Below are positions 11,445 through 44,493 of a DNA stretch of 64,000 nucleotides, in pieces (positions within the stretch are counted from its first letter, which is position 1; each line of letters begins with the position of its first letter). The stretch is from Escherichia coli (lineage in GTDB: Bacteria; Pseudomonadota; Gammaproteobacteria; Enterobacterales; Enterobacteriaceae), in NCBI RefSeq assembly GCF_041886205.1, contig NZ_CP169029.1. The stretch is one strand, 5' to 3'. Position numbers and translations under genes: made by a program. Under the pieces are notes generated by a model that saw only the letters and a program-made list of their open reading frames with translations, ran no database searches and was not told the DNA's origin.

Positions 11445-11564
11445 GACTTTTTATACCATGGCAAGTGCCATGGCACGCAGTTTTTCGATGTCATTCGTGG
11501 TGTTGAGAGCGGAGATGTCCATACAGGGGAGCATACCACTCCGGATACGGATATTAATTATTTT

Positions 11565-11957: not shown

Positions 11958-12273
11958 ATTTGAGCGCCCTGAAGACATCGGTAAGTTGTGACGGCTGACA
12001 GCACATCCGTACTCCACCGGGAAGGAGGAGCGTGACTGGCTCATTCGTGACGGGCTGTGGTACATCAGCATGCAGTGGTGGCGCAATATGAACGGGAAGA
12101 ACGGTCGGTTCATTTGCCCGGCGTTCAGCTTTTGCGACATCCTGCGGCCATTCGCGAAGTGATGTGAAGGGAATATCGTTGAGTTCACAGTATTGCTGAC
12201 GTGTAAGACCACTGGCGCGCCAGGCAGCACGTTGCTGCCTTTTCTGTTCAATGGTCCATCGGGGTTTTGACAT
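11944..12273 (-). CDS. tnpA: IS66-family Orf1 (TnpA)
   Basis: 109 aa, immediately upstream of and overlapping tnpB. Confidence 0.7.
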   Translation of the reverse strand: MSKPRWTIEQKRQQRAAWRASGLTRQQYCELNDIPFTSLREWPQDVAKAERRANEPTVLPVHIAPPLHADVPQPVTNEPVTLLLPGGVRMCCQPSQLTDVFRALKYAQS

Positions 12274-12276
12274 TGA

Positions 12277-13413
12277 TTATCTCCGGTAAGTTGGTGAATG
12301 AATGTCGGTAATGCTAACTGACTGAAAATCTCTGTGAAGATGACTTCCCCGTAACGACACCTTCTTTATCGCCTGCCGAATGACGCTGTTCAGCGATTCG
12401 ATGGCATTCGTCGTGTAGATGGCCTTGCGGATATCCGGTGGGTAACCGAAGAAGGTGTTGAGATTTTCCCAGTGTGTGCGCCAGCTCTTGCTGATTTGCG
12501 GGTATTTTTTATCCCAGACGCCTGCAAACTTATCCAACGCCATCAACGCAGCTTCCTCTGTCGGGGCCTGATATACCGCTTTCAGCCCGCTGGTGACGGC
12601 TTTGTAATCCTTCCACGACACGAATTTCAGGCTGTTGCGCACCATATGGATGATGCAGAGCTGAATATGCGTCTGCGGGTATACGCTATTTATCGCTTCC
12701 GGGAAGCCTTTCAGGCCGTCCACGCAGGCAATCAGGATGTCCTGAAGGCCACGATTTTTCAGCTCAGTCAGTACACCCAGCCAGAACTTTGCACCTTCAT
12801 TTTCTGCCAGCCACATACCCAGCAGCTCTTTCTGACCGTCGGTATTGATGCCCAGCGCGAGGAACACCGCTTTGTTAATGACACTCCCGCCGTGACGAAC
12901 CTTAACCACAATACAGTCAAGATAAACAATGGGATACAGTGCATCCAACGGTCGGTTTTGCCATTCAGAGACCTGTTCTTTAACCGCATCGGTCACTTTG
13001 GATATCAGCGTGGGCGAGACATCGGCGTCGTACATTTCTTTGAACGTGGCAACGATTTCCCGCGTAGTCATGCCTTTGGCATACAGGGACAAAATCTGGC
13101 TGTCCATCTGGGTGATGCGTGTCTGATGCTTCTTAATTAGTTGCGGTTCGAAGGTATTTTCACGGTCACGCGGCGTGTTAAGTTCGATCTCGCCATCATC
13201 GCACAATACCGTTTTTGACGAGTAGCCATTACGGGTATTAGAGCCTGATTTAGGAGCATTTTTCTCATGACCGAGATGGTCAGTCAGTTCTGCATTGAGC
13301 GCCGTTTCGACGGTAAGCTTTGTCAACATGCGTGAAAACTGGTTGAGGTCGGCTTCGGTTTTAAGGCCTTTGGCCAGTTCAGCCGCAAGAGCTTTAAGTT
13401 TCTTTTCGTCCAT
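12277..13413 (-). CDS. IS256-family transposase, C-terminus apparently replaced at the junction with IS66 element 1
   Basis: 378 aa with IS256-type transposase features (MULE/DDE region); C-terminal 27 residues look non-native. Confidence 0.65.
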   Translation of the reverse strand: MDEKKLKALAAELAKGLKTEADLNQFSRMLTKLTVETALNAELTDHLGHEKNAPKSGSNTRNGYSSKTVLCDDGEIELNTPRDRENTFEPQLIKKHQTRITQMDSQILSLYAKGMTTREIVATFKEMYDADVSPTLISKVTDAVKEQVSEWQNRPLDALYPIVYLDCIVVKVRHGGSVINKAVFLALGINTDGQKELLGMWLAENEGAKFWLGVLTELKNRGLQDILIACVDGLKGFPEAINSVYPQTHIQLCIIHMVRNSLKFVSWKDYKAVTSGLKAVYQAPTEEAALMALDKFAGVWDKKYPQISKSWRTHWENLNTFFGYPPDIRKAIYTTNAIESLNSVIRQAIKKVSLRGSHLHRDFQSVSITDIHSPTYRR

Positions 13414-13718
13414 CGTTTGCCTGTCTCCGTTGTTGGAGTGAACATATCAAAAACAGGCAATTACACAATTTTAATTACAGTCTCTTCGGTTATTAACGAA
13501 ACTCAACAATAGCGCCTGGTTGTGAAACCAGTTTAACCATTTGAAGCTTAAACTCATTTGAAAATGATCTGCGGGGTTTTGCAGATAATGTTTTCTGTTC
13601 CATAACAGGTGTCCACTAGTTTTGAAGGTGGGCACCTACGTTACCAATACTGGCTTAATGTGTATTAGCTCAGACCTGATCTGACAGTTACCGGTTATTT
13701 ATACAGGTATCTGTCAGA

Positions 13719-14804
13719 TTACATCTGGCTTAAATTTTTCTCGACCCAGATGCGTTTTCCATCAAGTAACGTTTCCATTGGCGTCCGCCCATTGCACATT
13801 TTTCCCTGATGGGTTCGCTCATTATTATAGTGAGCCAGCCATTCATCAAGATCCGACTGTAATGTATCAAGATCGCCGTACAGTTTTTTACGGAACGTTA
13901 CCTGATAAAATTCGTTCAGGATTGTTTTATGGAACCGCTCGCAGATGCCGTTGGTCTGCGGGGACATCGCCTTTGTTTTCGTGTGTTCTATATCGTTTAT
14001 TGCCAGATAAAGCTGATAATCATGCTGCTCTACTTTGCCACAGTACTCCGTGCCTCTGTCGGTCAGTATTCTCAGCATCGGCAGGCCCTGAGACGCATAA
14101 AACGGCAGTACACGATCATTCAGTAAGTCAGCTGCGGTAATCGGTGTTTTGGTGACGTAAAGCTTACAGTGAGCCACTTTCGAGTACGTATCAACGAACG
14201 TCTGCTGATAAATACGCCCGACACCTTTCAGGTTGCCTACATAGAACGTGTCCTGCGAACCCAGATATCCAGGATGAGCCGTTTCGATTTCGCCACAGGC
14301 CTCGTCATCACTGGCTTTACGCTCCAGTGCTGCGATCTGGCTGTCAGTTAGCTCAATGCCATCACGGGCTACTTTTTCTTCCAGTGCTTTCAGACGTTTT
14401 TTGAAATTCTCAAGGTTATGGCGTAACAAGACAGAACGGACACCACTGCCGGAGATAAAAACGCCCTGTTTACGCAGCTCGTTGCTGGTCCGGTGCTGAC
14501 CGTGTGCCGGGAAAGCGACGGCGTAATCAACAACAGCCTGTTCAGTTGCCTCATCGGTACGGTTCTTAAGGTTAGGAGCGCGGCGACTACGATTAATCAG
14601 CGCATCCACACCGCCTTCATCGACCAGTTCGCGGTAACGATAAAACGTATCACGCGAAACGCCCATGATTTTACAGACTTTTGATTCGTTGCTGAGTTCT
14701 TCCGCCAGATTGAGCAAACCGGCTTTGTGTTTGATAACGGGATTGGTAGTATGAAGCATGAGAGTTACCTCGTGTTTTGTATAAGGATTCGACACCCATA
14801 TCAA
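13719..14804 (-). CDS. Transposase, HTH + DDE (rve) integrase core, IS481-family-like
   Basis: 361-aa single ORF with N-terminal HTH and integrase-core motifs. Confidence 0.7.
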   Translation of the reverse strand: MIWVSNPYTKHEVTLMLHTTNPVIKHKAGLLNLAEELSNESKVCKIMGVSRDTFYRYRELVDEGGVDALINRSRRAPNLKNRTDEATEQAVVDYAVAFPAHGQHRTSNELRKQGVFISGSGVRSVLLRHNLENFKKRLKALEEKVARDGIELTDSQIAALERKASDDEACGEIETAHPGYLGSQDTFYVGNLKGVGRIYQQTFVDTYSKVAHCKLYVTKTPITAADLLNDRVLPFYASQGLPMLRILTDRGTEYCGKVEQHDYQLYLAINDIEHTKTKAMSPQTNGICERFHKTILNEFYQVTFRKKLYGDLDTLQSDLDEWLAHYNNERTHQGKMCNGRTPMETLLDGKRIWVEKNLSQM

Positions 14805-14936
14805 AACCGGTAACTCTCAACCTTTCAAGGCTCAGTGTTAGCGCCAATGATATAAGACAGTAATTCACCATTTGAATTGTCCGCTCCACCCAACATGTTG
14901 TTTCCTTGAGGTTCTCACACCAGAAAGGACATCAAC

Positions 14937-16906
<1,970 letters not shown>

Positions 16907-17142
16907 TCAAACAGCGGACATTAAAAATGGCGAAACGGTCATAAATCCTGGCGTTGACATCAGTGTCAGATCAAGTCGCGACTAATACACTTAATGGCTA
17001 CATACGGCGGTCAGTTTACGCTTACGAAAGGACGAACTTTTCTAAGGGCTTTTTTCCTTAAGTGGGGCTTGGATATTCGGAGTGGATTGTATTTAAAACG
17101 AATATCCAAGCAATCAAACTCTAGTCTACAAAACACATAAAT

Positions 17143-17226
17143 TCATGCACGTATCCATCCATGCTGTAGATAATCAGCTGTGATAATAGCAGCCGCTACT
17201 GAAGCAATTGAATGGAAAGCGTCGTC
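17143..17226 (-). pseudogene. Displaced 3' end (last 27 codons + stop) of the PNP-domain gene, separated from the gene body by IS66 element 2
   Basis: Joining minus-strand 19941 to 17226 across the TSD restores an in-frame ending ...STKDDAFHSIASVAAAIITADYLQHGWIRA*. Confidence 0.6.
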
Positions 17227-17287
17227 TTTTGTGCGTAACCGGCTCATTTAAACCGTCTGGTCTGTTTCCTCCGGCTCTACAAAAATA

Positions 17288-17965
17288 ATGTCCATCATTT
17301 TTAATGGACACTATCGTATGAAACACCGGACCTGGATCACTGAAGCTTTACGTCTTCACTTTGAAGAACATTTACCCCGGGTTGTGGCCGGGCGTCGCCT
17401 GGGTGTACCAAAATCAACAGTTTGTAGTATGTTCGTGCGCTTTCGGAGAGCTGGCCTTTCGTGGCCTTTGCCCGCAGGCATGTCGGAGCAGGAACTTGAT
17501 GCCTGCCTTTACGGACAATTTTCCACGGTACCAGTCGTACGTCCTGAAAGCACCGTTATATCCGAAGCCCCCGTGGTAAAAAAACGTCCCCGGCGGCCCA
17601 ACTTCCCTTATGAGTTTAAAATCGCCTTAGTGGAGCAGTCACTGCAGCCCGGAGCCTGTGTGGCGCAGATCGCCCGGGAAAACGGAATCAACGATAACCT
17701 GCTCTTCAACTGGCGCCATCAATACCGGAAAGGTGGCCTGCTGCCTTCCGGAAAAAATATGCCGGCACTGCTTCCCGTGACGTTAACGCCGGAGCCGGAT
17801 AATAAAATCCCGGCCCCCGCACAGGAACCAGAGCAGATAAATACACCGTCCGACAGTCTGTGTTGTGAGCTGGTTCTGCCGGCCGGAACTCTCAGGCTTA
17901 AAGGTAAACTGACGCCGGCGTTATTACAGACACTTATCCGCGAAATAAAAGGGAGCAGCCACTGA
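17288..17965 (+). CDS. tnpA: IS66-family Orf1 (TnpA-like); start uncertain
   Basis: HTH region; first gene after the left inverted repeat. Confidence 0.6.
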   Translation: MSIIFNGHYRMKHRTWITEALRLHFEEHLPRVVAGRRLGVPKSTVCSMFVRFRRAGLSWPLPAGMSEQELDACLYGQFSTVPVVRPESTVISEAPVVKKRPRRPNFPYEFKIALVEQSLQPGACVAQIARENGINDNLLFNWRHQYRKGGLLPSGKNMPALLPVTLTPEPDNKIPAPAQEPEQINTPSDSLCCELVLPAGTLRLKGKLTPALLQTLIREIKGSSH

Positions 17966-18312
17966 TGATATCTCTCCCTGCAGGTTCGCGTATCTGGCTG
18001 GTTGCAGGTATCACCGATATGCGAAATGGCTTTAACGGCCTGGCATCAAAAGTTCAGAACGTCCTGAAGGATGACCCGTTCTCCGGACACCTGTTCATCT
18101 TCCGCGGACGCCGGGGTGACCAGATAAAAGTGTTGTGGGCTGACAGTGACGGACTGTGCCTCTTCACCAAACGCCTGGAGCGGGGCCGCTTCGTCTGGCC
18201 AGTCACCCGTGACGGCAAGGTGCACCTTACTCCGGCTCAGTTATCCATGCTTCTTGAAGGTATCAACTGGAAGCACCCGAAACGAACGGAACGCGCTGGA
18301 ATCCGCATATAA
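17965..18312 (+). CDS. tnpB: IS66-family Orf2 (TnpB)
   Basis: 115 aa, typical TnpB sequence. Confidence 0.85.
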   Translation: MISLPAGSRIWLVAGITDMRNGFNGLASKVQNVLKDDPFSGHLFIFRGRRGDQIKVLWADSDGLCLFTKRLERGRFVWPVTRDGKVHLTPAQLSMLLEGINWKHPKRTERAGIRI

Positions 18313-18331
18313 CCCGTTGTAAAGTGAGGAT

Positions 18332-19903
18332 ATGGACACCTCACTTGCTCATGAGAACGCCCGCCTGCGGGCACTGTTGCAGACGCAACAGGACACCATC
18401 CGCCAGATGGCTGAATACAACCGCCTGCTCTCACAGCGGGTGGCGGCTTATGCTTCCGAAATCAACCGGCTGAAGGCGCTGGTTGCGAAACTGCAACGTA
18501 TGCAGTTCGGTAAAAGCTCAGAAAAACTTCGTGCAAAAACCGAACGGCAGATACAGGAAGCACAGGAGCGAATCAGCGCACTTCAGGAAGAAATGGCGGA
18601 AACGCTGGGTGAGCAATATGACCCGGTACTGCCATCCGCCCTGCGCCAGTCTTCAGCCCGTAAACCGTTACCGGCCTCACTTCCCCGTGAAACCCGGGTT
18701 ATCCGGCCGGAAGAGGAATGCTGTCCTGCCTGTGGTGGTGAACTCAGTTCTCTGGGATGTGATGTGTCAGAGCAACTGGAGCTTATCAGCAGCGCCTTTA
18801 AGGTTATCGAAACACAACGTCCGAAACAGGCCTGTTGCCGGTGCGACCATATCGTGCAGGCACCAGTACCTTCAAAACCCATTGCACGCAGTTATGCCGG
18901 AGCGGGGCTTCTGGCCCATGTTGTCACCGGGAAATATGCAGACCATCTGCCGTTATACCGCCAGTCAGAAATATACCGTCGTCAGGGAGTGGAGCTGAGC
19001 CGTGCCACACTGGGGCGCTGGACAGGTGCTGTTGCTGAACTGCTGGAGCCGCTGTATGACGTCCTGCGCCAGTATGTGCTGATGCCCGGTAAAGTCCATG
19101 CTGATGATATCCCCGTCCCGGTCCAGGAGCCGGGCAGCGGTAAAACCCGGACAGCCCGGCTGTGGGTCTACGTCCGTGATGACCGTAACGCCGGTTCACA
19201 GATGCCCCCGGCGGTCTGGTTCGCGTACAGTCCGGACCGGAAAGGTATCCATCCACAAAATCACCTGGCCGGTTACAGCGGTGTGCTTCAGGCCGATGCT
19301 TACGGTGGTTACCGGGCGTTATACGAATCCGGCAGAATAACGGAAGCCGCGTGTATGGCTCATGCCCGGAGAAAAATCCACGATGTGCATGCAAGAGCGT
19401 CCACCTACATCACCACGGAAGCCCTGCAGCGTATCGGTGAACTGTATGCCATCGAGGCAGAGGTCCGGGGCTGTTCAGCAGAACAGCGTCTGGCGGCAAG
19501 AAAAGCCAGAGCCGCGCCACTGATGCAGTCACTGTATGACTGGATACAGCAACAGATGAAAACACTGTCGCGTCACTCAGATACGGCAAAAGCGTTCGCA
19601 TACCTGCTGAAACAGTGGGATGCACTGAACGTGTACTGCAGTAATGGCTGGGTGGAAATCGACAACAACATCGCAGAGAACGCCTTACGGGGAGTGGCCG
19701 TAGGCCGGAAAAACTGGATGTTCGCGGGTTCCGACAGCGGTGGTGAACATGCGGCGGTGTTGTACTCGCTGATCGGCACATGCCGTCTGAACAATGTGGA
19801 GCCAGAAAAGTGGCTGCGTTACGTCATTGAACATATCCAGGACTGGCCGGCAAACCGGGTACGCGATCTGTTGCCCTGGAAAGTTGATCTGAGCTCTCAG
19901 TAA
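18332..19903 (+). CDS. tnpC: IS66-family transposase TnpC
   Basis: 523 aa; leucine-zipper N-terminus, zinc-finger cysteines, [20 protein letters not shown]. Confidence 0.9.
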
Positions 19904-19906
19904 ATA

Positions 19907-21382
19907 TCAATACGGTTCTGACGAGTCGCTTACTTTTGTGCTGTCGCCAAAATCACTAATCCCTCTCACAATAAGCGCTGGAACTCCCTGCTTTTCGCAG
20001 GCATCAAATACCCCATAGGCTTCCATTTCGGCAACACAGGCTTTGTCATGAAGCGACCTGAAACGTTCTAGTAAAGCAGGATCGCGGATAAGAAGCTCTC
20101 CTGATGCGATAGTGGCTGAAGAAACAATTATCCCAGCAGCTACGTCTCCAGCCTGCGAATTTTCAGGCATTTCGAGTCCTATAGCCTGTGCCCGTTCGCC
20201 AAGACGTGCGGATAGTGACGTTGTTGCAAGGTAAGTATTGAGGTTTTGTTTAGTTGGCATATGGAGACATAATATTTCAGGTCGAGGAGCAAACTTCCCA
20301 CCTTCTAATGCGGCTGCACTTTCATAATAAATGACACGCTCAGAAATAATGACTTCACCTAGCACCATTTTTTCTCTCAACCCCGCCGCAATCCCCATCA
20401 TCAAGACTTTTTGGGGTTTGAATTCCGACAACAACATGGTAGTAATAGCTGAAGCATTCACATTTCCAGCACTAGCGAAAGACGCCACTATGCCAGTTAC
20501 TGGGCCATCTGAGCGTTGTATGGATGTGGACCAGAAATGTATTCCATTTGATGTGAGCCGCGGAGATTCATCATCAGCTATGCCAAATACTTTCTTGGCT
20601 GCAGCAAGTTCAACTGGTAGAGCTGTCAAAATCAACACATTTGGAGTATGCAGCAACTGTTGTGCAGCCCATTCAGCTTTAAGCAATTCAACTGCGATTT
20701 CTGAAAGTCGTTCCAGTCCATAGTAAGGTTCCTGTAACGATAAAGTGTCGAGCTGATTTTTTACGGCTTCACCGGTGCAAGGGAACATAGACAGCGGCTC
20801 TGCATAAAAACGTGCATGTAGGCCTAAAGCACCTTTTCCGTCATCGCAAATTCCCCCAAGCTCCAAGTCAAACGGTAATATGGGGTGGTTGGCTTTACGC
20901 ATTTTACTCGCACGATCGGAAACGCCTTTTCCTCCACCTAATGCAATCATGGCTGTGGCAGCATCAACCTGCTCGCTTCCAATATTTCCTCCAGTAATGA
21001 GATCATCATCTAGATAGCTGACATCAGCAAATCTAGCTGCCTGAAGTTTACGAATAAGCATCCGATTCTCTTCAGACATTTTCTCCCGCATTGCAGAACG
21101 CGACGTGACGATCTTGAGTTGGTGGGCTGGCGTATAATTCTCCATTAAATCTACAGCTTCTTTTACTATCGTCCAGTCGAAGGTCAGGAGATCCCCATTT
21201 TCATTAACAGGTTCTCCTGCCAAATAGACAACTAGTCCCACATTTGCATCAAGGATGCTCTTCGTCAATGCTCGAACGAAACTATGTGCTCGATCAATAT
21301 AAAGTTTTTCTGTATTTTTGGATATACTTCCAGCGATCAGAACATACTCATTATTAGTATTTGTCATCACAATTCTTCCCAA
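19907..21382 (-). CDS. Two-domain protein: N-terminal Rossmann-like domain with GGGKG motif (possible ligand sensor) + C-terminal PNP/MTA-nucleosidase-family domain; 3' end interrupted by IS66 element 2
   Basis: C-terminal half has nucleosidase-like motifs (VAEMEAYGV, RGISDFGD); last 8 codons and stop are IS-encoded (VSDSSEPY*). Confidence 0.6.
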   Translation of the reverse strand: MGRIVMTNTNNEYVLIAGSISKNTEKLYIDRAHSFVRALTKSILDANVGLVVYLAGEPVNENGDLLTFDWTIVKEAVDLMENYTPAHQLKIVTSRSAMREKMSEENRMLIRKLQAARFADVSYLDDDLITGGNIGSEQVDAATAMIALGGGKGVSDRASKMRKANHPILPFDLELGGICDDGKGALGLHARFYAEPLSMFPCTGEAVKNQLDTLSLQEPYYGLERLSEIAVELLKAEWAAQQLLHTPNVLILTALPVELAAAKKVFGIADDESPRLTSNGIHFWSTSIQRSDGPVTGIVASFASAGNVNASAITTMLLSEFKPQKVLMMGIAAGLREKMVLGEVIISERVIYYESAAALEGGKFAPRPEILCLHMPTKQNLNTYLATTSLSARLGERAQAIGLEMPENSQAGDVAAGIIVSSATIASGELLIRDPALLERFRSLHDKACVAEMEAYGVFDACEKQGVPALIVRGISDFGDSTKVSDSSEPY

Positions 21383-21396
21383 AGGAGTATTACTTG

Positions 21397-22296
21397 TTAC
21401 TGTTTAAGTAAGGCATAGATTTCATCCTTGTTTTTTAATGCTAACTGTAATGCTTCCGGCGCCTGATGTGACTGAGTCTCTGTAAGATTTAACTGGAAAA
21501 GAAGGTAGTGCAGCAAAGCTTGTCGGCATTCCAGATGGATTTCTCCGTCGATCATTGCATAATCTCTCTCAATAAGGTTTCGTTGAGCAAGGCATAGTCC
21601 AGGATGCGCTATAAGAATAATTTTGATGAATGTATTCCACGCTAAATCACCATTAGCCCTCTCTTCATCGGGTCCGGCGTTTTGTGCCTGCACTATTCGC
21701 GACAATAAAAAGTCCCTATATTCACCACGTTTATGACACCATGCTCTTGTGTGCCAGCGATAACCATCATGGACTAATGAATGAGGAGTCAAGGTTCGTT
21801 TACTGCCTTGAGGGTCACTCATGGATTGATAAATAACATGAACAGCCTCATTTTCACGTATAGCTCGTAATATTTGACTTACGACATCAGTGTCCAGTCT
21901 ACGTAACAGTCGTGGAACCGCTGCAACGGGTGAGCGCCAGCCCAGAAAGCTTCCAAAATGAATTTCAGGTTGTATTGCCACTCGCAGCAAATCATTCAGA
22001 TAACATTCCAGAGAGCTGGTCATATAAACTGGCTGAAACAATTTCGTTGAACGGTAAACTCGGGAACTCATATCGTACTCAAGATTATCGGGGGCTAACT
22101 TAGTATATTCACTAAGATCCAGCGAAGCTTGAGGTACTGATATGCCGAAAAAATCAGTGAGGCTGCTACGATTGATTTGCCCATCCCATCGAAGTCGATA
22201 ATCAATAAATTCAAGCCGACGCTCTTGGCCCCATCTCGCACCTTGCCGTCCTTTTTGGCTGTCTTGCTTATCCCCTTCTCTAAAGTTATCTGGCAT
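21397..22296 (-). CDS. WYL-domain transcriptional regulator (CapW/BrxR-like)
   Basis: 299 aa; N-terminal wHTH, central WYL-type motif (HDGYRWHTRAWCHKRGEYRDFLLSRI); divergent from the nucleotidyltransferase operon. Confidence 0.65.
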   Translation of the reverse strand: MPDNFREGDKQDSQKGRQGARWGQERRLEFIDYRLRWDGQINRSSLTDFFGISVPQASLDLSEYTKLAPDNLEYDMSSRVYRSTKLFQPVYMTSSLECYLNDLLRVAIQPEIHFGSFLGWRSPVAAVPRLLRRLDTDVVSQILRAIRENEAVHVIYQSMSDPQGSKRTLTPHSLVHDGYRWHTRAWCHKRGEYRDFLLSRIVQAQNAGPDEERANGDLAWNTFIKIILIAHPGLCLAQRNLIERDYAMIDGEIHLECRQALLHYLLFQLNLTETQSHQAPEALQLALKNKDEIYALLKQ

Positions 22297-22394
22297 CTTA
22301 GTTCCCGGTAGCGTATAAAAAATATCTCAATATAAAAAGTAGACGCAGAATAAAAACTGAACGTATAATAATGCTACGCTATAGGGCGGTAAGG

Positions 22395-22434
22395 TGCAAC
22401 CATCACCTCAGTCACTTCTGAGGTGATGGTTGCA
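22395..22434. promoter_or_regulatory. Perfect 17-bp inverted repeat (TGCAACCATCACCTCAG - 6 bp - CTGAGGTGATGGTTGCA) in the divergent intergenic region; candidate operator or 5'-leader hairpin
   Basis: Lies between a -10-like TATAAT (~22363) and the RBS/start at 22466. Confidence 0.5.
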
Positions 22435-22465
22435 GTTTTCATGAATGATCTTCGGAAGGATGTGA

Positions 22466-23410
22466 ATGCCACTCACTAATACTCAGATCCGATACTACGA
22501 CAGCAATGTACTGCGTTTGCCTAAGGATAAGCGTGAAACCTACAATGCCCAAGTAGATCGGCTTATTACAGCGTTACGTAAAAAACTGAAAGATCAGGAT
22601 AAAATAACAATAAAACGTGTCGTTAAAGCTGGTTCGTTTGCTAAACACACTATTCTACGCAAAACCTCAGACAGTCAGGTCGATGTGGATGTTGTGTTTT
22701 ACGTTAGTGGAGAGAAAGTTGCTGAGGAAACCTTCGCAAGCCTGAGCGAAAAAATTTACGAAGCCTTACTTAAAATGTATCCCAACAAAGCTGTAGAAGA
22801 TTTCGAGATTCAACGTAAGGCTGCTACTGTTTCTTTTGTCGGGACTGGATTAGATGTTGATATTGTTCCCGTCATCGAAAATCCGGACAAAGAAGGCTAT
22901 GGATGGCAGTTTGACCGTATCGATGGTTCGAAGACAGAGACTTGTGCTCCTTGCCAGATCAAATTTGTGAAAGATCGCAAAGACCAAGACCCGGACTTTC
23001 GTACTTTAGTACGCTTAGCTAAACGTTGGCGTACCAACATGGAATGCCCACTTAAGTCATTTCATATAGAACTAATCATGGCTCATGTACTAGAAGTCAA
23101 TGGAAAAGATGGTTCGTTGGAGAAGCGATTTCGGGATTTTCTACTGTACATTGCTGAATCAGGATTAAAAGAAGTTATCACCTTCCCTGAAAATAGCACT
23201 ATACCAGCATTTTCCCATCCAGTTGTCATACTGGATCCTGTTTGCGATACGAACAACGTTACCAGCCGTATTACCGAGGATGAGCGAAAAGAGATCGTCC
23301 GGATTGCTGAGGAAAGTTGGGCGACGGCAAATTTTGCGTCGGTAGAAGGAGACTATGATATCTGGAAGGAGCTGTTTGGTCGTTCATTTAAAGTGGAGGA
23401 TACAGCATGA
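22466..23410 (+). CDS. cGAS/DncV-like nucleotidyltransferase (CD-NTase-like)
   Basis: 314 aa; GS-x9-S-x5-DVD nucleotidyltransferase motif, third acidic residue in LDVDIVPV; RBS GGAAGGA upstream. Confidence 0.65.
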   Translation: MPLTNTQIRYYDSNVLRLPKDKRETYNAQVDRLITALRKKLKDQDKITIKRVVKAGSFAKHTILRKTSDSQVDVDVVFYVSGEKVAEETFASLSEKIYEALLKMYPNKAVEDFEIQRKAATVSFVGTGLDVDIVPVIENPDKEGYGWQFDRIDGSKTETCAPCQIKFVKDRKDQDPDFRTLVRLAKRWRTNMECPLKSFHIELIMAHVLEVNGKDGSLEKRFRDFLLYIAESGLKEVITFPENSTIPAFSHPVVILDPVCDTNNVTSRITEDERKEIVRIAEESWATANFASVEGDYDIWKELFGRSFKVEDTA

Positions 23411-23895
23411 GTTACTCCTCAACTGAAACATCGACTTATACCACAACAGACGTTGAAGCAGTCATGCGACGCATCACAGCTGACTTAGTGATGATTGCCG
23501 CCAGTACCGGTGCGATAACTGAATCAAAAGCACGTGAGTATGCTCACGATATAGAACTCTTAGCAAAAAATGGATATCTGGATTACGTCGATGTGACCCT
23601 TATAAGCAATGGCGTTGAACAGAAAGCAACCCGGTTTCATGTGAATGAGTCCGGAGAATTGGCAAATGACAGACCTGGAGACGCTCGTTGGCCGAGAATT
23701 CAGGGGGCTTATCTGCGGATTGTTGTGAACAACCGGAGTACCTACGATCAGGCTGCGAGGCAAAAGCTTTCAGGTAAGATGAAAATATCGTGGTCGCCAT
23801 GTAGTGATGACATCAGTCATTCAGGTTTGACCCAAAGTGGTGGTCGTGAATATTCCAGCAATGGTTATGGTATGCAACGTAAGGATTACAATTAA
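23407..23895 (+). CDS. Small protein (162 aa), possibly HORMA-like (Cap7-type); assignment from position and size only
   Basis: Translationally coupled (ATGA overlap) between the nucleotidyltransferase and the AAA+ ATPase. Confidence 0.35.
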   Translation: MSYSSTETSTYTTTDVEAVMRRITADLVMIAASTGAITESKAREYAHDIELLAKNGYLDYVDVTLISNGVEQKATRFHVNESGELANDRPGDARWPRIQGAYLRIVVNNRSTYDQAARQKLSGKMKISWSPCSDDISHSGLTQSGGREYSSNGYGMQRKDYN

Positions 23896-24791
23896 TGAGC
23901 AAGAGTAGTGTTTTCGACTCAGTGATTGATTTACCGCAGCGCGAACTGACAGAGCGAGAGAACATTTTACTTGGCTTTGAAAGTCGTTATGAGAGTGTCC
24001 ACAACCAACTCAACCTGCTGCTTAACCAAGGGCAACTCCTTGACTGGAGCAAGAAGTACCATAAGAGCGTTTTACCGCTCTGCAAGCTCGTTGCTGAGCA
24101 GTATCCGCTTGTTATTTTTCATGGTGATGTAGGAACAGGTAAAACAGCAACTGCTGAGTGCATCGCGAATCGTCTTGTCCGCGAGTCTCGCACTGAAGAT
24201 TCGGCCCTCTTTAAGCTCAGCAATCGGGTCCGTGGTTCCGGAAAAGTGGGGGAGATGGGGACGCTACTAACTCAGGCATGGGCAGAAGTGTGCGAGGCTG
24301 CGGGTAAAAATCGCAGAGCAATACTGATTATTGATGAAGGGGATTCAATTGCAGCTTCCCGTTCTCAAAACCACAGCCATCATGAAGATAAAGTAGCAGT
24401 AAATACTTTAATTCAAGGAGTGGATGAGCTACGAAAATTTGGCGGCCGGGTTGTGGTAATTTTATGTACTAATAGACTATCCGTCCTTGACCCTGCACTT
24501 CGTAGGCGAGCAGCGATTGTCGAAGAATTTACTCGCCCCGGGCTCACAGAACGAGAATCGCTTTTTCGCATGGATCTTGGAGGGATGGGATTGTCAGATA
24601 GTCAATATCGTCAACTAGCGGTGGCAACTGGTGAGAAAGAAAATCTGCCAGCATGGACATACTCTGATATCCGTACGCGCCTCTATCCCGCAGCAATGTC
24701 AAGAGCGTTTCCTGAACGGGCTTTAAGTTTTAATGATTTGATGGAATTATTGAAAATAATGAGGCCTTCCCCCGTCATGGGAGATATATAA
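23895..24791 (+). CDS. AAA+ ATPase, possibly TRIP13/Pch2-like (Cap6-type)
   Basis: 298 aa; Walker A GDVGTGKTA, Walker B ILIIDEGD; overlapping start with the upstream gene. Confidence 0.5.
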   Translation: MSKSSVFDSVIDLPQRELTERENILLGFESRYESVHNQLNLLLNQGQLLDWSKKYHKSVLPLCKLVAEQYPLVIFHGDVGTGKTATAECIANRLVRESRTEDSALFKLSNRVRGSGKVGEMGTLLTQAWAEVCEAAGKNRRAILIIDEGDSIAASRSQNHSHHEDKVAVNTLIQGVDELRKFGGRVVVILCTNRLSVLDPALRRRAAIVEEFTRPGLTERESLFRMDLGGMGLSDSQYRQLAVATGEKENLPAWTYSDIRTRLYPAAMSRAFPERALSFNDLMELLKIMRPSPVMGDI

Positions 24792-24848
24792 GGCCCCATT
24801 TCTTAATCAACTGATATACTATAAAAATCAACTCCAATTCCGGTACAT

Positions 24849-25451
24849 TTGTTGATTTACGGTGCACTTCTTGCAAGCAGGAACTATATGAGAACTGATA
24901 AAGAAATTTTCGTTTCAGTTGATGTGGAAACATCAGGCCCTATTCCGGGGAAATACAGTATGTTATCGATAGGTGCTTGTGTGGCATTTGAACCATCAAA
25001 GCAATTTTCATGTTACCTTAAACCGATATCTGAAGATTTTATCCCTGCGGCTATGGAAGTGACTGGGTTATCGCTGGAGAAGTTGCACGTCGATGGTTTG
25101 GATCCTGTTGATGCAATGGTTCAATTTAAAGAATGGATTAATTCGGTCGTAAAGGAAGATGAGACTGTAGTTTTTGTTGGTTTCAATGCTTCATTTGACT
25201 GGAGCTTTATTAATTATTATTTCCATGTATATTTAGGTGATAATCCTTTTGGCATCGCAGCACTCGATATAAAATCAATGTATTTTGGCGTTTCTCACGC
25301 CTCATGGAGATTAACACGTTCTAGTGAAATAGCGAAAGTTGTCAAACCTGAGACATATGGTGATCATGATGCATTACATGATGCCCGATATCAGGCTGAA
25401 CTATTCCGGTTGATCGATAAATTGAGCGAGAAGAAAAAATTAGATCGATGA
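24849..25451 (+). CDS. DEDDh-family 3'-5' exonuclease (DnaQ-like fold); likely start at Met 24888
   Basis: Exo [11 protein letters not shown], Exo [11 protein letters not shown], Exo [17 protein letters not shown]. Confidence 0.75.
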
Positions 25452-25538
25452 GTTGCGCAAATAATCATATGGAATTTTCAAAGATTAATTTACTGGAAGT
25501 ACAGTGAATTACCTTATGACAAGAGTTCTGGTGGATAT

Positions 25539-25994
25539 ATGAATGACGAATTTAGCTGTGCAAGTGAGCATATCTGGAAATATTTCGAATTGCATGCACA
25601 ACAAAGAATGACTGTTTTCAATTTTTACATTGCGATAACAGGACTTCTTGCTGCTGGCATTGGGGTTACTCTCCAACAAGGAGGGAAGTATGTATTATTT
25701 ACTTCACTTATGGGGGTGTTTGTAGCATTTATTTCATTTATTTTCTGGAAATTGGATCAGCGAGTGTCGATTTTAATAAAAAATGCTGAAATTGCTCTAC
25801 AAGATCTTGAATGTCAATTTTCCAATGAAAAGCTGAGGATAATCACTAAAGATAATAGCAGTCATTTGCTAAACTTAGGCATTAGTTCTTCTTGGACTTA
25901 TGGAAAATGCTTCCGCATTTCATTTGTTATAGTAGGTCTTACTGGGATATTACTTGCGATTACACCTTTTCTGATGAAAGTCTCGACTTCTTAA
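25539..25994 (+). CDS. Small predicted membrane protein (151 aa), function unknown
   Basis: Two to three hydrophobic helices; last gene before the IS2-like element. Confidence 0.4.
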   Translation: MNDEFSCASEHIWKYFELHAQQRMTVFNFYIAITGLLAAGIGVTLQQGGKYVLFTSLMGVFVAFISFIFWKLDQRVSILIKNAEIALQDLECQFSNEKLRIITKDNSSHLLNLGISSSWTYGKCFRISFVIVGLTGILLAITPFLMKVSTS

Positions 25995-26067
25995 TACATT
26001 TGAGCCGGCCCCTTGAAACGCCAGACAGTGGATGTATCTTAAAATAAGAGATAGGCTTGGATATATG

Positions 26068-26424
26068 TCTAACACTAGTTCTAATTTTGAGATGACAGGA
26101 ACTTTGCTGGGGCAGGGGCTTCGTAAACGTAAAACTCCTCAGGAAAAAATTGACATTATTCAGCAGACAATGGAGCCTGGCATGACGGTGTCCCATGTGG
26201 CGCGTTTGCACAGTATTCAGCCCGGCCTGTTATTTAAGTGGAAAAAACAATATCTGGAAGGAAGTCTCACTGCTGTTGCTGCCGGAGAGGATGTTGTTCC
26301 TGCCTCAGAACTGGCTGCCGCTATAAAACAAATAAAAGAGTTACAGCGCTTTCTGGGTAAAAAACCATGGAAGTTGAGATCCTCAAAGAAGCAGTGGAGT
26401 ATGGTCAGTCGTAAAAATGGATAG
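26068..26424 (+). CDS. IS3-family OrfA (IS2 InsC-like)
   Basis: Motifs [24 protein letters not shown] and [33 protein letters not shown]. Confidence 0.7.
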
Positions 26425-26459
26425 CGCATGCGCCCTTGTTGCCAACGGACAAGGAATAA

Positions 26460-27225
26460 CCATGGTAATCCGTATTCTGGACGTGTCGCGTGCGTAACTG
26501 GCACAACGGATGAAAATATCTGGTAATAAGCCGGATAAACGTCGTCGCAGATGTGATGAGGCTGCGGATGCGGAAGTGTTAGCACGCATCCTTGATATCA
26601 TCAGCGATATGCCGACATATGGCTATCGTCGTGTCCGGGCTATTCTCAGACGGCAGTCTTAACGAAGGACTGCAGTTCGTGAATGCAAATCGCGTTTATC
26701 GAATAATGAGCGAGAATAACCTGTTGTTATTACATGACAAACCTTCACGACCGCAGAGGGAACATAAAGGCCCGAATATCGGTGAAGGAAAGCGACCCGC
26801 GCTGGTGTGCCGATGGCTTTGAGTTCGGTTGTGATGATGACGAAAAACTGCGTGTCACGTTCGCACTGGACTGTTGCGATCTTGAATCCATAGACTGGGC
26901 CGCAAGCACGGGAGGTTATGGCAAAGCAACGGTGCAGGATGTCATGTCAGGAGCGATAGAAAAACGCTTTGGCGATAGACCGGGATGGCCCATCCAGTGG
27001 CTGACCGATAACGGTTCAGCTTATACAACTCATGAAACACGGCAGTTCGCCAGAGAGTTGAATCTGGAGCTCTGCACGACGGCAGTCAGTAGCCCTCAGA
27101 GTAATGGAATGAGAGAACGGTTCGTGAAAACGATGAAGAGCGATTACATCAGTATCATACCTAAACCGGACGTGTTAACGGCAGTAAAAAACCTTGCGGA
27201 GGCGTTCGAACACTATAACGAATAG
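26460..27225 (+). pseudogene. IS3-family OrfB (DDE transposase) with frameshifts and stops
   Basis: Integrase-core homology spread over two or more frames. Confidence 0.7.
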
Positions 27226-27330
27226 CATCCTCATGGTGCCTTGGTTATCTCTCACCGAGGGAATATCAACGTCACTCGGTAACGTTAACTTAAGCTCAAC
27301 GGCTGTCTGGATATAGTGGTTCAAGGGCAC

Positions 27331-27487
27331 CTAAGGGCCTTATTTACGGTGTTTTCGCTGATTGGTTTACGCGGGTCATGTGCTCCCGTAAAGACCAGAC
27401 CATTTTCAACTGCCCATGTCTGAAGTTTTATCAGTATGGCTACAGCCTGTTTGCTGAGTGGCACAAGATGTGGTGTTCGCATCTTAT
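27331..27487 (-). pseudogene. Internal fragment of a P4-type integrase gene
   Basis: ~155 bp at ~93% identity to 43341-43497 within the intact integrase, same orientation. Confidence 0.7.
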
Positions 27488-27692
27488 GGATTCACCATTA
27501 TAGTGACATGTTCAAGATGATGATATATCTTTGAAAAGTGTTCTCTTTGCGAACGGTATAGAATTTCTAGCGTTACTTTTCATAATTACACTTTTTAGGG
27601 TTAGGCAGGCACAATCTATGCGCTGTCTTAGATAACTACATCCATTTTTACTGGACTACCACCAACAAAAATTTAGTGGTGCAGGAGAAAAC

Positions 27693-30600
27693 GTGAAGTA
27701 TCAGATAGTAGGTGGTGCTGGCCTGCACCGCAGCGAAACCAAAACAGTTGATATGATGGTTAAGCAGTTACCAGATAGTTGGTTTGGCTATGCTGGCTTA
27801 GTTGTTACTGATAGCCAAGGGTCGATGGAAATCGATATGCTAATTATTACTGCTGACCGTCTGCTATTAGTCGAGCTTAAAGAGTGGAATGGTAACATCA
27901 CATTTGAAGGGGGGAAGTGGCTGCAAAATGGTAAGTCACGAGGCAAAAGTCCCTATCAGATCAAGCGTGAGCATGCACTGCGACTAAAAGATTTGTTGCA
28001 GGAAGAGTTATCTCGTAAGCTGGGTTACTTTTTGCATGTTGAGGCTCATGTAGTGCTGTGTGGCACAGCTGGTCCTGAAAACTTGCCATTAAGTGAGAGG
28101 CGCTATGTTCATACCCGTGATGAATTCTTGACTATAGGTAACCCAAAAAATTACGAAAAGCTGGTGCAACACACTAACTTTTTTCATCTTTTTGAAGGGG
28201 GAAAGCCTCGACCAAATTCTGATGAGGCATTACCTATAATTAAGTCCTTCTTTGAAGGACCAAAAGTCAGGCCTTTGCCACTAAAAGAAAGCGGTTATCT
28301 TGCGAACGATAAGCCATTCTTTAGTCACCCTCACATGGTCTACAACGAATTCAGGGCTACCCACAAAGACAATAGTCAACACAGAGGTCTGCTACGGCAG
28401 TGGAACTTTGATGCCTTGGGTGTAGCAAACGCAATGCAAACATTGTGGGCTGAGATAGCTCTGCGTGAGACTCGAGTCGGTCGCCTAGTTCGTCATGGCA
28501 GCGCAACTATGCAGGATTATATGTTGCGTGCTGTAAGGGAACTATCCGAGGAGGATATAACTGATGATGCCCGTGAGCTGTATGAGTTACGCCGTAGTTT
28601 TAGCCGATTAGATGAGATTCTAGATAGCGAAGCTGACGGATGGAGTAAATCTGAGCGTATTGATCGCGTTCGTGCATTATTAGCTCCATTCTCGGAATTA
28701 CATAGCTTGGGTATCAGTCATTGTGATATTGACCCGCACAATCTATGGTACGCAGGGGATCAGAAGAGCATTGTCGTTACTGGCTTTGGCGCAGCCTCAC
28801 TGGAGGGACATAATAGCCTAGAGTCATTGCGTCCGATATTGCAAAGTGCTCCATATATTTTGCCCGAAGATGCTTTTGAAGAAGCAGTTGAGCCCTATCG
28901 CCTAGATGTATTCATGTTGGCTGTAATTGCTTATCGTATTTGTTTTGCAGGTGAATCATTACTGACTCCTGGACAGATGCCTGAATGGAGAGCTCCATTA
29001 ACTGATCCTTTTAGCGGTATTCTAAATAGCTGGTTTGAGCAAGCTCTTAACCTTGAGCCAAGTAAACGCTTTCCACGTGCGGACATAATGCTCAATGAGT
29101 TTAATGCAGCTACTAAGGAACATAGCCAAGAATTTGATGAAGCTAACCAGATTTATCAAGAATTAAAGCAAAACAAATTCTTTCGCGAAGGGATGAACAG
29201 CGTTGGTGTGTTAATTGAGTTTCCTCCACTTCCTGAACAGTTGTCTATGGTTTACTCTGCTCTTGCTGCTATTGCTACGACTGGCAGCATCAGTTATCAC
29301 TGTGAACAAGGTGGGAAAGCTCTGCAGGTAAAATTGTGGGATGGTGTTATTTTGACCCCTCAACAACCTGGTGTTAACCGCCGTATCCACGCTTTTAAGC
29401 AACGGATCGATAAGCTTACGCATATAAATCTGCCAACTCCTAAGGTGCAGTCCTATGGACTATTAGGACAAGGCGGCTTGTATGTAGTGAGCGAGTATGT
29501 GGATGGCCTACCGTGGTCACAGTTTATTGCTGAGAACGTGTTAGTACAATCCCAACGTTTTACAATTGCGGAAAAGTTGATCAACACCATTCATGCTTTT
29601 CATGAAAAGCAGTTACCTCATGGAGATCTTTGCCCAGAGAAACTGCTGGTACAAGTCGGGGAGCAGACAGTAATTACTCTGATTGGATTGCTTGAATTCA
29701 GTGATGAATTAACTGCAGATAATCGCTACCAGCCAGAGAATCCCGAAAGTACTGATGCTTTTGGGCGAGATTGCTTTGCAGTATATCGTATGGTGGAGGA
29801 GCTATTTAGTGAAGATATGCCAGTACTGGTGCAGGCTGAGCTAGAACGCGCAAAACAAACCGTTGACGGTATACCTATCGCGCTCGATCCTTTGCTGCAG
29901 TCAATTCGAGCACCGGAACAAGCTGAGATTAATCAAGTTGTGGCGTCTGAGTCACAGGATAAGGTAATTCCTGTTTGCTGGGGCACAGATGATTGGCCGC
30001 AAGAAGTGAAGCTTCTAGAACAAAATGATGGGATCTATTATTTTCAATGTAACTGGTCATCGAACCCACGCTTTGCGCATGAATTGCGTTGTTACATCAC
30101 TGGCCTAGGAGAGCGGCTATTGATAGACTTAGATCCTGATAATCGCACTATTAATAGAATAGTGTATGAAAAAGGATTATCGATCGAAGAAAGTATAAAG
30201 GCTGGTAAATATTCCCAGGCTAAAATTAATACTCAACTTTCATTACAACGTGGCTCACTTAATCAGCGTAATACTTTTATTGAACTACTGTTTAACCTCG
30301 AGCCAGTAATTGATGCCATCATTGAGCGAGCTAATCCTAATCAAGAGATGGATGAAGATGACTTCGATAGTAGTGAGTCAAGCCCAATTGAGTTATGGCA
30401 GGCATTATCTGATACAGAAGTAGACCTACGAGATATAGTCAACATCGACTCTACTGACTTTCAGGAATCACCGAGTGGTTGCTTACTCTACCCATATACT
30501 ACGGAATCCGGTGCTGACCTCAGCTTTGAACTTGATGATAAGATCATTGTTTATATTAAAGATAAGCGTGAATCAGTGCAATTAGGGGAATTGCAGCTAA

Positions 30601-32651
30601 GTGAGACTACGCCGAGTCTATTGGCTATTCGCTTTGATTTTGATGCTGCTCGTAAGCGAATTAGTAGCGGCAGCCAGCTACAATTGGAATCGATCCGTGA
30701 CAAATCATCAAGAGAGTTGCGTCAAAGAGCCCTTCAACGGGTAATTGAAAACAAAGCAGAGATCCAGCATCTGCCACAGTATTTTGATTACCACCAGAAA
30801 CCCTGCATGCAGCAAATGCAACCGCGGCCATCCGCGGAGACATTACGCGCACTTTATGATCAGCCTGGACAACGTTTTAATGAACAGCAGCTAATGGCAT
30901 TTCAACAGTTGGTCGAGTTTGGACCAGTTGGAGTTCTGCAGGGACCACCTGGAACAGGTAAAACAACATTTATTTCAAAATTTATTCACTATCTGTATCA
31001 ACATTGCGGTGTGAATAACATTCTTTTGGTCGGGCAATCCCATGCCTCTGTTGATAATGTAGCCATCAAGGCTCGAGAGCTCTGCCATACGAAAGGAATG
31101 GAACTGGATACAGTACGTATTGGTAATGAACTTATGATTGATGAGGGTATGCTAAGTGTTGCAACTAAAGCTCTTCAGCGACAGATTCAGCATAAATTTC
31201 ACCGTGAATATGATCTGCGAGTTAGCTCCCTAGGAAAGCGCCTAGGGATGGCCCCATTATTAGTCCAACAGTTATGTCAGTTACATCGTACGCTGAATCC
31301 CTTGATGGTGACATATGGCCAATATAGCCGTGAGCTGGATAAAGTAGAACAAATAAAGAGTAGTAGTATTAGTCATCAAGAGCGACTGGCTGAATTATTA
31401 GAACAAAGCAATCAGCTTAAACTGCGAACACAAGAAATTATTAACTCAATATTCGATGACAGCTTGCTGAAAACTCTTGTCTATGATGAAACCTTGATAA
31501 GACAGTTGGCTGAGCAAGTTGCCATACAATACAATTATAACAATCCAGAGAACCTTGAACGTTTTATGCAGCTATTGGAAATGAGCCAAGAGTGGATGGA
31601 TGTATTACGCGGCGGCGAGGCTGGATTTGATCGATTTATGTTCAAAAGTAAGCGATTGGTTTGTGGAACTCTTGTTGGTGTTGGGAATCGTCGACTAGAA
31701 CTAGCTGAGTCCAGCTTTGATTGGGTAATAGTTGATGAGGCTGGCCGAGCACAAGCTGCTGAATTGATGGTAGCGCTGCAATCAGGCAAGCGGGTGCTGT
31801 TGGTAGGGGATCATAAACAATTGCCACCATTCTATCATCAACAGCATCTTAAGTTAGCCTCTAAGAAATTAGAACTCGGGAAAGGGATCTTTTATGAGTC
31901 TGATTTTGAACGTGCTTTTAAAGCAACAGGCGGCGTAACACTCGATACTCAATATCGAATGGTAGAACCAATTGGCGAGTTAGTATCGGAGTGCTTTTAC
32001 GCTCAAGATATCGGTAAACTGCATTCATCGAGGAAAGTCTCGCCAGATTGGTATTCCAAGTTACCAATCCCTTGGAACAAAACTGTTACTTGGATCGATA
32101 GTTCGAGCCCTAATGAAGCAGGTGCAGAAGAACATAAGGGTAATGGTCGTTACTATAATCAACGAGAAGTCCGGCTACTGCTAGAGGCTTTGCAGTCATT
32201 GTCGAGTGATGGCTGCATTGCACAGCTTGAGCAAACTATTACCACAGAACAGCCATATCCTATTGGTATAATCACAATGTATCGTCAGCAAAAAGAGGAA
32301 ATTGACAATGCTATCAGTCGGGCTGAATGGGCTGCATCGTTACGTGGTTTGATCAAGATCGATACCGTTGATTCATATCAGGGCCATGAAAACAAGATAA
32401 TTATCCTCAGTCTGGTTCGCGATAATCCCAACAAACTACAAGGTTTCCTGCGCGACGCGCCGCGAATAAACGTTGCTATTTCGCGAGCTCAAGAAAGGTT
32501 ATTGATTCTGGGAGCAAGGCGTATGTGGTCAAAGACCAATAATGATTCAGCACTTGGAAACGTTCATGAATTTATTAGTAAACAGGTTGCAGTAGATGAA
32601 CCCAACTACCAAATCCTGTGTGGTCAAAGTCTGCTTGGAGATAACAACTAA
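27693..32651 (+). CDS. 1652-aa multidomain protein: N-terminal NERD-like domain, two protein-kinase-like domains, C-terminal SF1 (Upf1/DNA2-like) helicase
   Basis: GTG start with AGGAG RBS; NERD-like EIDMLIITADRLLLVELKEW; kinase-like HCDIDPHN...TGFG...DVFMLAVIAY and HGDLCPEKLLV...DAFGRDCFAVY; helicase Walker [10 protein letters not shown], Walker B VIVDEAG, motifs LVGDHKQLPP, DSYQGHE, VAISRAQERLLILG. Confidence 0.8.
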   Translation: MKYQIVGGAGLHRSETKTVDMMVKQLPDSWFGYAGLVVTDSQGSMEIDMLIITADRLLLVELKEWNGNITFEGGKWLQNGKSRGKSPYQIKREHALRLKDLLQEELSRKLGYFLHVEAHVVLCGTAGPENLPLSERRYVHTRDEFLTIGNPKNYEKLVQHTNFFHLFEGGKPRPNSDEALPIIKSFFEGPKVRPLPLKESGYLANDKPFFSHPHMVYNEFRATHKDNSQHRGLLRQWNFDALGVANAMQTLWAEIALRETRVGRLVRHGSATMQDYMLRAVRELSEEDITDDARELYELRRSFSRLDEILDSEADGWSKSERIDRVRALLAPFSELHSLGISHCDIDPHNLWYAGDQKSIVVTGFGAASLEGHNSLESLRPILQSAPYILPEDAFEEAVEPYRLDVFMLAVIAYRICFAGESLLTPGQMPEWRAPLTDPFSGILNSWFEQALNLEPSKRFPRADIMLNEFNAATKEHSQEFDEANQIYQELKQNKFFREGMNSVGVLIEFPPLPEQLSMVYSALAAIATTGSISYHCEQGGKALQVKLWDGVILTPQQPGVNRRIHAFKQRIDKLTHINLPTPKVQSYGLLGQGGLYVVSEYVDGLPWSQFIAENVLVQSQRFTIAEKLINTIHAFHEKQLPHGDLCPEKLLVQVGEQTVITLIGLLEFSDELTADNRYQPENPESTDAFGRDCFAVYRMVEELFSEDMPVLVQAELERAKQTVDGIPIALDPLLQSIRAPEQAEINQVVASESQDKVIPVCWGTDDWPQEVKLLEQNDGIYYFQCNWSSNPRFAHELRCYITGLGERLLIDLDPDNRTINRIVYEKGLSIEESIKAGKYSQAKINTQLSLQRGSLNQRNTFIELLFNLEPVIDAIIERANPNQEMDEDDFDSSESSPIELWQALSDTEVDLRDIVNIDSTDFQESPSGCLLYPYTTESGADLSFELDDKIIVYIKDKRESVQLGELQLSETTPSLLAIRFDFDAARKRISSGSQLQLESIRDKSSRELRQRALQRVIENKAEIQHLPQYFDYHQKPCMQQMQPRPSAETLRALYDQPGQRFNEQQLMAFQQLVEFGPVGVLQGPPGTGKTTFISKFIHYLYQHCGVNNILLVGQSHASVDNVAIKARELCHTKGMELDTVRIGNELMIDEGMLSVATKALQRQIQHKFHREYDLRVSSLGKRLGMAPLLVQQLCQLHRTLNPLMVTYGQYSRELDKVEQIKSSSISHQERLAELLEQSNQLKLRTQEIINSIFDDSLLKTLVYDETLIRQLAEQVAIQYNYNNPENLERFMQLLEMSQEWMDVLRGGEAGFDRFMFKSKRLVCGTLVGVGNRRLELAESSFDWVIVDEAGRAQAAELMVALQSGKRVLLVGDHKQLPPFYHQQHLKLASKKLELGKGIFYESDFERAFKATGGVTLDTQYRMVEPIGELVSECFYAQDIGKLHSSRKVSPDWYSKLPIPWNKTVTWIDSSSPNEAGAEEHKGNGRYYNQREVRLLLEALQSLSSDGCIAQLEQTITTEQPYPIGIITMYRQQKEEIDNAISRAEWAASLRGLIKIDTVDSYQGHENKIIILSLVRDNPNKLQGFLRDAPRINVAISRAQERLLILGARRMWSKTNNDSALGNVHEFISKQVAVDEPNYQILCGQSLLGDNN

Positions 32652-44326: not shown

Positions 44327-44493
44327 AGTATAGCCTTCTGAATGCGTTAAAGAGGGTACAAATTCTGTCGAACTGGGGTATGCCCGCAATTATACCCACA
44401 CAATGGGGTTGATGTGGGGGGAATCTGGTTGAGTTCGGTAGAATTGATTTGTAGGTAGAACGCTTAAATTGTGGCGTTCTGAAACGAAAAACG

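Follow-up and report, generated by a model that had tools for sequence, protein, structure and literature searches.

CapW in a type III CBASS locus of Escherichia coli: its operator region, its pairing with cap17 and the interruption of cap17 by ISCro1

A gene for a protein with a WYL domain lies, in a stretch of Escherichia coli DNA of 64,000 nucleotides (contig NZ_CP169029.1 of assembly GCF_041886205.1, referred to here as the window), between a gene for a PNP-domain protein, which follows it on the same strand, and an operon of CBASS character, which runs the other way. The arrangement raises two connected questions: which neighbour the regulator controls, and whether the putative effector is expressed from the message of its own regulator. 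Taken together, the evidence makes it very probable that the open reading frame is the ssDNA-sensing capW of a type III CBASS of the upec-117/KTE188 type, that capW and cap17 form a bicistron, and that the effector is disrupted by ISCro1. For a near-identical E. coli locus, publications already cover the gene, operator and ligand of CapW as well as the suggestion that capW and cap17 are co-expressed. Added here are the loss of the end of cap17 to ISCro1, the corrected start of cap17 and gap before it, the conservation of the module, and a hairpin in the cdnC leader that had gone unremarked.

The reading frame, which runs from ATG to stop, had been taken in an earlier note on this DNA for a defence repressor of the CapW/BrxR type, and its product proves to be one residue away from the founding Ec CapW. 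It is identical at 298 of 299 positions to WP_001534693.1, the Ec CapW accession of E. coli upec-117 (Blankenchip et al. 2022, NAR, PMC9122588), the sole difference being R105 here and Q105 there. Given this identity and the match of the whole locus, the window protein is the founding member of the CapW family and not just a protein of the same type. Residues 2-297 align to the crystal structure of P. aeruginosa CapW (7tb5, E=5.7e-130), and further full-length matches are to 7tb6 (S. maltophilia CapW), 9c5g (CapW bound to ssDNA) and the BrxR structure 7t8k (E=4.5e-42), with a second BrxR structure, 7qfz, at E=3.2e-38. The WYL domain, which the earlier note had proposed to look for with an HMM search, is found in residues 138-205 (Pfam, E=5e-17), and the PADLOC WYL models also match (E=1.7e-19). 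The Pfam scan reports WYL alone for this protein; its orthologues carry precomputed WHD_BrxR, WYL and BrxR_CTD domains. NCBIfam returns no family for it. BrxR shares the three-domain wHTH-WYL-WCX fold and the logic of a dimeric repressor (7t8k, 7qfz), but it controls BREX as well as other systems, usually runs in the same direction as they do, and is a more distant paralogue, whereas the window protein is a CapW orthologue.

The features that characterize CapW are present at this locus. The wHTH, WYL and WCX domains are combined in one polypeptide of about 300 residues, the gene precedes the core CBASS genes and points away from them, a palindromic operator to which binding is predicted lies over the -10 element of the CBASS promoter, and the residues for binding of DNA and of ssDNA are conserved. 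The latter (R43, S53, Q56, S58, S158, R180, R184 and R200) are all at their published positions. Mutations of R43 and of S53/Q56/S58 abolish the binding of dsDNA, while S158, R180, R184 and R200 either abolish the binding of ssDNA when mutated or lie along the ssDNA pocket (PMC9122588, PMC11662680). By analogy with the characterized protein, this copy of CapW would be expected to repress transcription and to be released by ssDNA or DNA damage.

The operon divergent from capW, which the earlier note had described as CBASS-like, is a true type III CBASS on the plus strand, with a CD-NTase, a HORMA protein and a TRIP13-like ATPase (Table 1). The PADLOC matches are strong for the cyclase (E=6.9e-124), HORMA (7.5e-81), TRIP13 (5.7e-125) and the exonuclease (2.4e-90). 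The gene order, cap17-capW / cdnC-cap7-cap6-cap18-cap19, is the same in the upec-117 CBASS, where the "entire CBASS system" was cloned as 69873-76528 of CP054230.1, a segment that encodes Cap17, CapW, CdnC, Cap7, Cap6, Cap18 and Cap19 (Blankenchip et al., PMC9122588). The part of CP054230.1 that is 99.3% identical to the window locus, 70161-76228, falls within this published construct. The window differs from upec-117 in R105 of CapW, in an A for T at 22361 in the operator, and in the presence of ISCro1 in cap17. A megablast search with 19907-26000 finds the locus in 5 of 5426 complete E. coli genomes, at 99.3-100% identity; the island of strain ZYB39 is 100% identical to that of the window, the ISCro1 insertion aside.

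Table 1. Features of the capW locus, in coordinates of the window
Feature	Position	Strand	Basis
Orphaned cap17 3' end, last 27 codons (DDAFHSIASVAAAIITADYLQHGWIRA) and stop	17143..17234	-	translation equals full-length Cap17 C-terminus
8-bp target-site duplication TTTTGTGC	left 17227..17234, right 19934-19941	.	junctions compared with uninterrupted ZYB39
Full-length ISCro1 (IS66 family; tnpA, tnpB, tnpC) within cap17	17235..19933	+	ZYB39 comparison, annotated copies
Truncated cap17 (TPALS/Cap17-like_N + PNP ATP nucleosidase effector)	19907..21367	-	Pfam, PADLOC, BLASTP
capW-cap17 spacer, 29 nt, with GGAAG Shine-Dalgarno-like motif	21368..21396	-	sequence, scans, RNA fold
capW (wHTH-WYL-WCX transcriptional repressor, 299 aa)	21397..22296	-	ORF, Pfam WYL, CapW/BrxR structure matches
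Weak reverse-promoter candidates zone (capW-cap17)	22329..22393	-	relaxed hexamer scan
cdnC forward promoter TAGACG-18-TATAAT	22340..22369	+	consensus scan, 10/12
CapW operator	22351..22380	.	published 30-bp probe TAAAAACTGATCGTATAATAATGCTACGCT with one mismatch
cdnC leader hairpin: perfect 17-bp inverted repeat, 6-nt loop, then GTTTTCAT	22395..22434	+	repeat search, cdnC 5' leader
Core CBASS operon	22466..25994	+	PADLOC, RefSeq annotation of identical loci, gene names from PMC9122588
cdnC	22466-23410	+	PADLOC
cap7/HORMA	23407-23895	+	PADLOC
cap6/TRIP13	23895-24791	+	PADLOC
cap18 exonuclease (DEDD)	24888-25451	+	PADLOC
cap19 small membrane protein	25539-25994	+	RefSeq annotation of identical loci, PMC9122588 names

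The intergenic region between capW and cdnC is 169 bp long (between 22296 and 22466) and contains the 30-bp site that Ec CapW prefers according to PMC11662680, the sole mismatch being at the edge of the site. This operator is an imperfect palindrome around CGTATAATAATGCTACG, and the -10 hexamer of the cdnC promoter (TATAAT, 22364-22369) falls inside it, as does the -10 of the CBASS promoter in the published description (PMC9122588). The cdnC promoter is the only strong promoter-like site that the consensus scan finds in the intergenic region. It is located at the same site in ZYB39 and in Serratia, and the block of promoter and operator is kept in the Serratia, Acetobacter and Pseudomonas citri-like loci. 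One dimer of CapW binds a single imperfect palindrome over this -10 element (PMC9122588, PMC11662680), repressing both the forward cdnC-cap7-cap6-cap18-cap19 transcript and the reverse transcript of capW itself (PMC9122588). For the reverse direction, the standard consensus scan of the intergenic region finds no minus-strand promoter. The relaxed scan gives two weak candidates, TTACCG-16-TATTAT (8/12, -10 at 22370-22365) and TTTTTA-16-TATATT (8/12, -10 at 22334-22329), both of which touch the region of the operator probe and neither of which is favoured. In the literature, the promoter positions are BPROM predictions, and the CapW-repressed reverse promoter rests on CapW-FLAG data, in which CapW-FLAG goes up in the DNA-binding mutants (PMC9122588).

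The earlier note had placed the PNP-domain gene 14 bp downstream of capW on the same strand. Its location downstream and its strand are correct, but the gap is 29 nt and the gene, cap17, is interrupted. A start of cap17 at TTG 21382 was considered and dropped in favour of ATG 21367, because the RefSeq annotation of identical loci, the N-termini of homologues and the GGAAG motif, 7 nt upstream of this ATG, agree; the gap is therefore 29 nt and not 14. The terminator scan finds no terminator-like site in the spacer, and across the junction the RNA folds no more stably than shuffled sequences do (z=+0.91). Downstream of cap17 in ZYB39, where the locus is intact, the same scan likewise finds no terminator, so that a spacer without one is weak evidence. 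The two genes are also read as expressed together in the literature, where the bottom strand is, in the legend of Fig. S5, the one "driving capW and cap17 expression" (PMC9122588).

The tandem had also been called unusual, which overstates the case, as it is standard for this CBASS clade. It is found in all four orthologous loci (Serratia, Pseudomonas sp. PLMAX, Acetobacter and P. citri-like), whose Cap17 proteins are 49-71% identical to that of the window. In each of them a gene with WHD_BrxR, WYL and BrxR_CTD domains lies directly upstream of cap17 on the same strand, and the pair is divergent from SMODS, HORMA, AAA and RNase_T genes; across the loci, the gap between capW and cap17 is about 29-56 nt. 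The pairing is thus typical of the CapW-regulated clade and not an oddity of the window genome. Distant homologues of Cap17 sit in other CBASS contexts. A Burkholderia locus (L007, 6001-10507) likewise has cap17 (46% identity at the protein level), a SMODS cyclase, HORMA, an AAA ATPase and an RNase_T exonuclease, but it is without a WYL gene, and cap17 comes first in a single co-directional cap17-cyclase-HORMA-AAA-exonuclease operon. It follows that the divergent capW-cap17 module characterizes the CapW-regulated clade, and the comparison suggests an origin in one clade, through an inversion or an insertion. In Supplementary Table S1 of PMC9122588, the CapW systems are sorted by CBASS type and not by effector.

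Even so close to capW, cap17 might have a promoter of its own, either within the 3' portion of capW or in the spacer. The autoregulation of CapW would then have no bearing on the expression of the effector, and the two genes would be neighbours only through packing. Co-transcription of capW and cap17 rests on inference in the literature (PMC9122588), the 56-nt spacer of the Acetobacter locus holds a TTGACA hexamer, and a promoter-like match on the minus strand, the sole one found (TGGACA-16-AATATT, 9/12), lies inside capW at 21896-21869. This internal site, however, precedes cap17 by about 500 nt, and the promoter-like sites in the scanned region are at or below the number expected by chance (4 against 5.4). 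Scans of both the window and ZYB39 find no promoter-like site within 100 nt of the E. coli cap17 start, and the short gaps and the tandem order kept across genera also argue against an independent promoter, which appears improbable. The preferred reading, here as in the literature, is that cap17 is the second gene of a capW-cap17 bicistron without a promoter of its own. At the level of sequence, the features of the spacer and the conserved tandem order are consistent with such a shared transcript.

It is extremely improbable that the WYL protein is instead a general BrxR-like island regulator serving a neighbouring system such as Mokosh and not CBASS: although WYL regulators of the BrxR family adjoin many defence systems (PMC9122601) and the island also has Mokosh genes of types I and II, the operator defined by experiment for CapW is located between capW and cdnC, CapW represses a reporter that has this intergenic region as its promoter (PMC9122588), orthologous capW genes stay with CBASS where the called neighbours include no Mokosh-type gene, and IS3-family remnants (at about 26030-27230) separate CBASS from Mokosh.

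Directly after CBASS, at 27693-34198, come the Mokosh type I genes, which encode MkoA (1652 residues, PADLOC 1303.6 bits) and MkoB (515 residues, E=1.1e-61). A protein of 1171 residues, encoded at 39097-42612 on the minus strand, is a full-length match to PADLOC MkoC of Mokosh type II (1684 bits), and the island therefore carries two Mokosh systems in addition to CBASS. An integrase-domain gene (43064-44389, minus strand; NCBIfam PRK09692, E=3.5e-74) adjoins an ornithine decarboxylase gene (45727-47946, plus strand) that is closest to SpeF and just under the cut-off of the SpeF model; the border between the island and the core chromosome is probably at the integrase. The flank in the first part of the window is heavily ridden with insertion sequences. 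Here, a reverse-transcriptase domain reading frame of 270 codons (8482-9294, plus strand), which matches models of group II intron and DRT-type reverse transcriptases, precedes an accumulation of IS elements at 9957-16906, with an IS66-family transposase at 9957-11444 and with IS481 and IS21 istA/istB recognized by position match to the ZYB39 annotation. Three plus-strand reading frames of 1130, 285 and 409 codons (14-3406, 3707-4564 and 5944-7173) have no match in NCBIfam or PADLOC, and the region of these uncharacterised frames alternates between about 45% and 57% GC.

Cap17 has the two domains of its family, Cap17-like_N (E=3.8e-65) and PNP_UDP_1 (E=4e-19), and matches the PADLOC profile for effectors of the PN superfamily at positions 1-478 of 506. 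Comparison by BLASTP with the 505-residue reference gives 473 identities in 478 positions and stops at K478, since ISCro1 cuts the gene at codon 478 of 505. The native codons 1-478 are at 19934-21367, followed by eight codons derived from the insertion sequence, which encode VSDSSEPY, and a stop (19907-19933), while the last 27 codons themselves are left at 17143-17226. The element is 2699 bp long, has the ends GTAACCG... and ...CGCTTAC, and is 100% identical over its full length to many annotated copies of ISCro1. In ZYB39 the sequences corresponding to 13001-17234 and 19933-34000 are contiguous, with no ISCro1 between them, and the insertion is absent from all five complete E. coli genomes with the locus. 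The catalytic D472 is kept. Homologues as distant as 38% identity conserve the segment that is missing here, K-DD-x-FH-x-x-AS-x-AAAI...D, and it can be aligned with MTA/SAH nucleosidase structures in their C-terminal part. The Cap17 of bioRxiv 10.1101/2023.01.24.525353 is alike in its Cap17-like_N and PNP domains, in the D472 numbering and in belonging to a type III CBASS, but the window protein is without residues 479-505. Cap17 shortened in this way loses a conserved C-terminal helix, and, to judge from the conservation of the lost segment, the enzyme is probably destabilised and this CBASS copy probably non-functional. The assignment to the CBASS family stands, yet the copy in the window is probably defective.

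In the published system, ssDNA that arises from DNA damage or phage infection binds to the WYL domain, and CapW leaves the DNA (PMC11662680). CdnC, with HORMA and TRIP13, makes the signal (cited CBASS papers). Cap17 is the effector, an ATP nucleosidase that requires D472 and depletes ATP (bioRxiv 10.1101/2023.01.24.525353). Cap19 is needed for protection and the catalytic activity of Cap18, as judged from a catalytically dead form, is not (PMC9122588). If cap17 rides on the capW message, the genes of effector and sensor would be induced together from one operator, so that the dosage of the effector would be tied to the negative autoregulation of CapW. In the window, the capW transcript would run into ISCro1 and Cap17 would be made without its conserved C-terminal helix; because the insertion removes this helix, the system would be regulated yet probably unable to kill or arrest the cell. 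CapH-CapP and CapK-CapS are also described as CBASS regulators, encoded with or upstream of immune operons that they induce on DNA damage. The former is a two-protein regulator associated with an ssDNA-stimulated peptidase, and the latter pairs a DNA damage-activated kinase with a repressor. They differ from CapW in being unrelated proteins with unrelated mechanisms, and they are absent here.

The forward arm has a further feature, a hairpin in the leader of cdnC, downstream of the forward promoter and ahead of the cdnC start, with a short U-run after it. It is flagged by the terminator-like scan, and the predicted fold of the leader RNA has an energy of -42.9 kcal/mol (z=-4.69). A search of 21200-22600 against Rfam at permissive thresholds gives no match, so the hairpin belongs to no described RNA family. 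It was also considered as a dispersed repeat of the REP/MITE type, but this idea was rejected, as 5 of 5426 E. coli genomes have the repeat and all of them have it at this locus and nowhere else. In Serratia the corresponding position holds a hairpin that is imperfect and includes one compensatory pair; the cdnC leaders of Acetobacter and Pseudomonas are longer and differently structured. The 2022 paper on CapW (PMC9122588) does not use the word "hairpin" in its main text. The hairpin may be an attenuator or an element of mRNA stability, and users of the native cdnC promoter in reporter constructs should know that a strong leader hairpin is present.

A wider proposal would make the capW-cap17 bicistron a conserved dose-buffering module and the hairpin a second layer of control on the cdnC arm; as a whole it is put forward tentatively and is rather unlikely. 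For the locus at hand, the CBASS copy in the window should not be counted as a working system, as the end of its effector gene has been lost to an insertion sequence. For the CapW-regulated systems in general, the conservation of the capW-cap17 tandem across genera strengthens the published assumption of an operon. If the wider proposal were true, placing a toxic ATP nucleosidase behind an autorepressor would buffer the dose of the effector.
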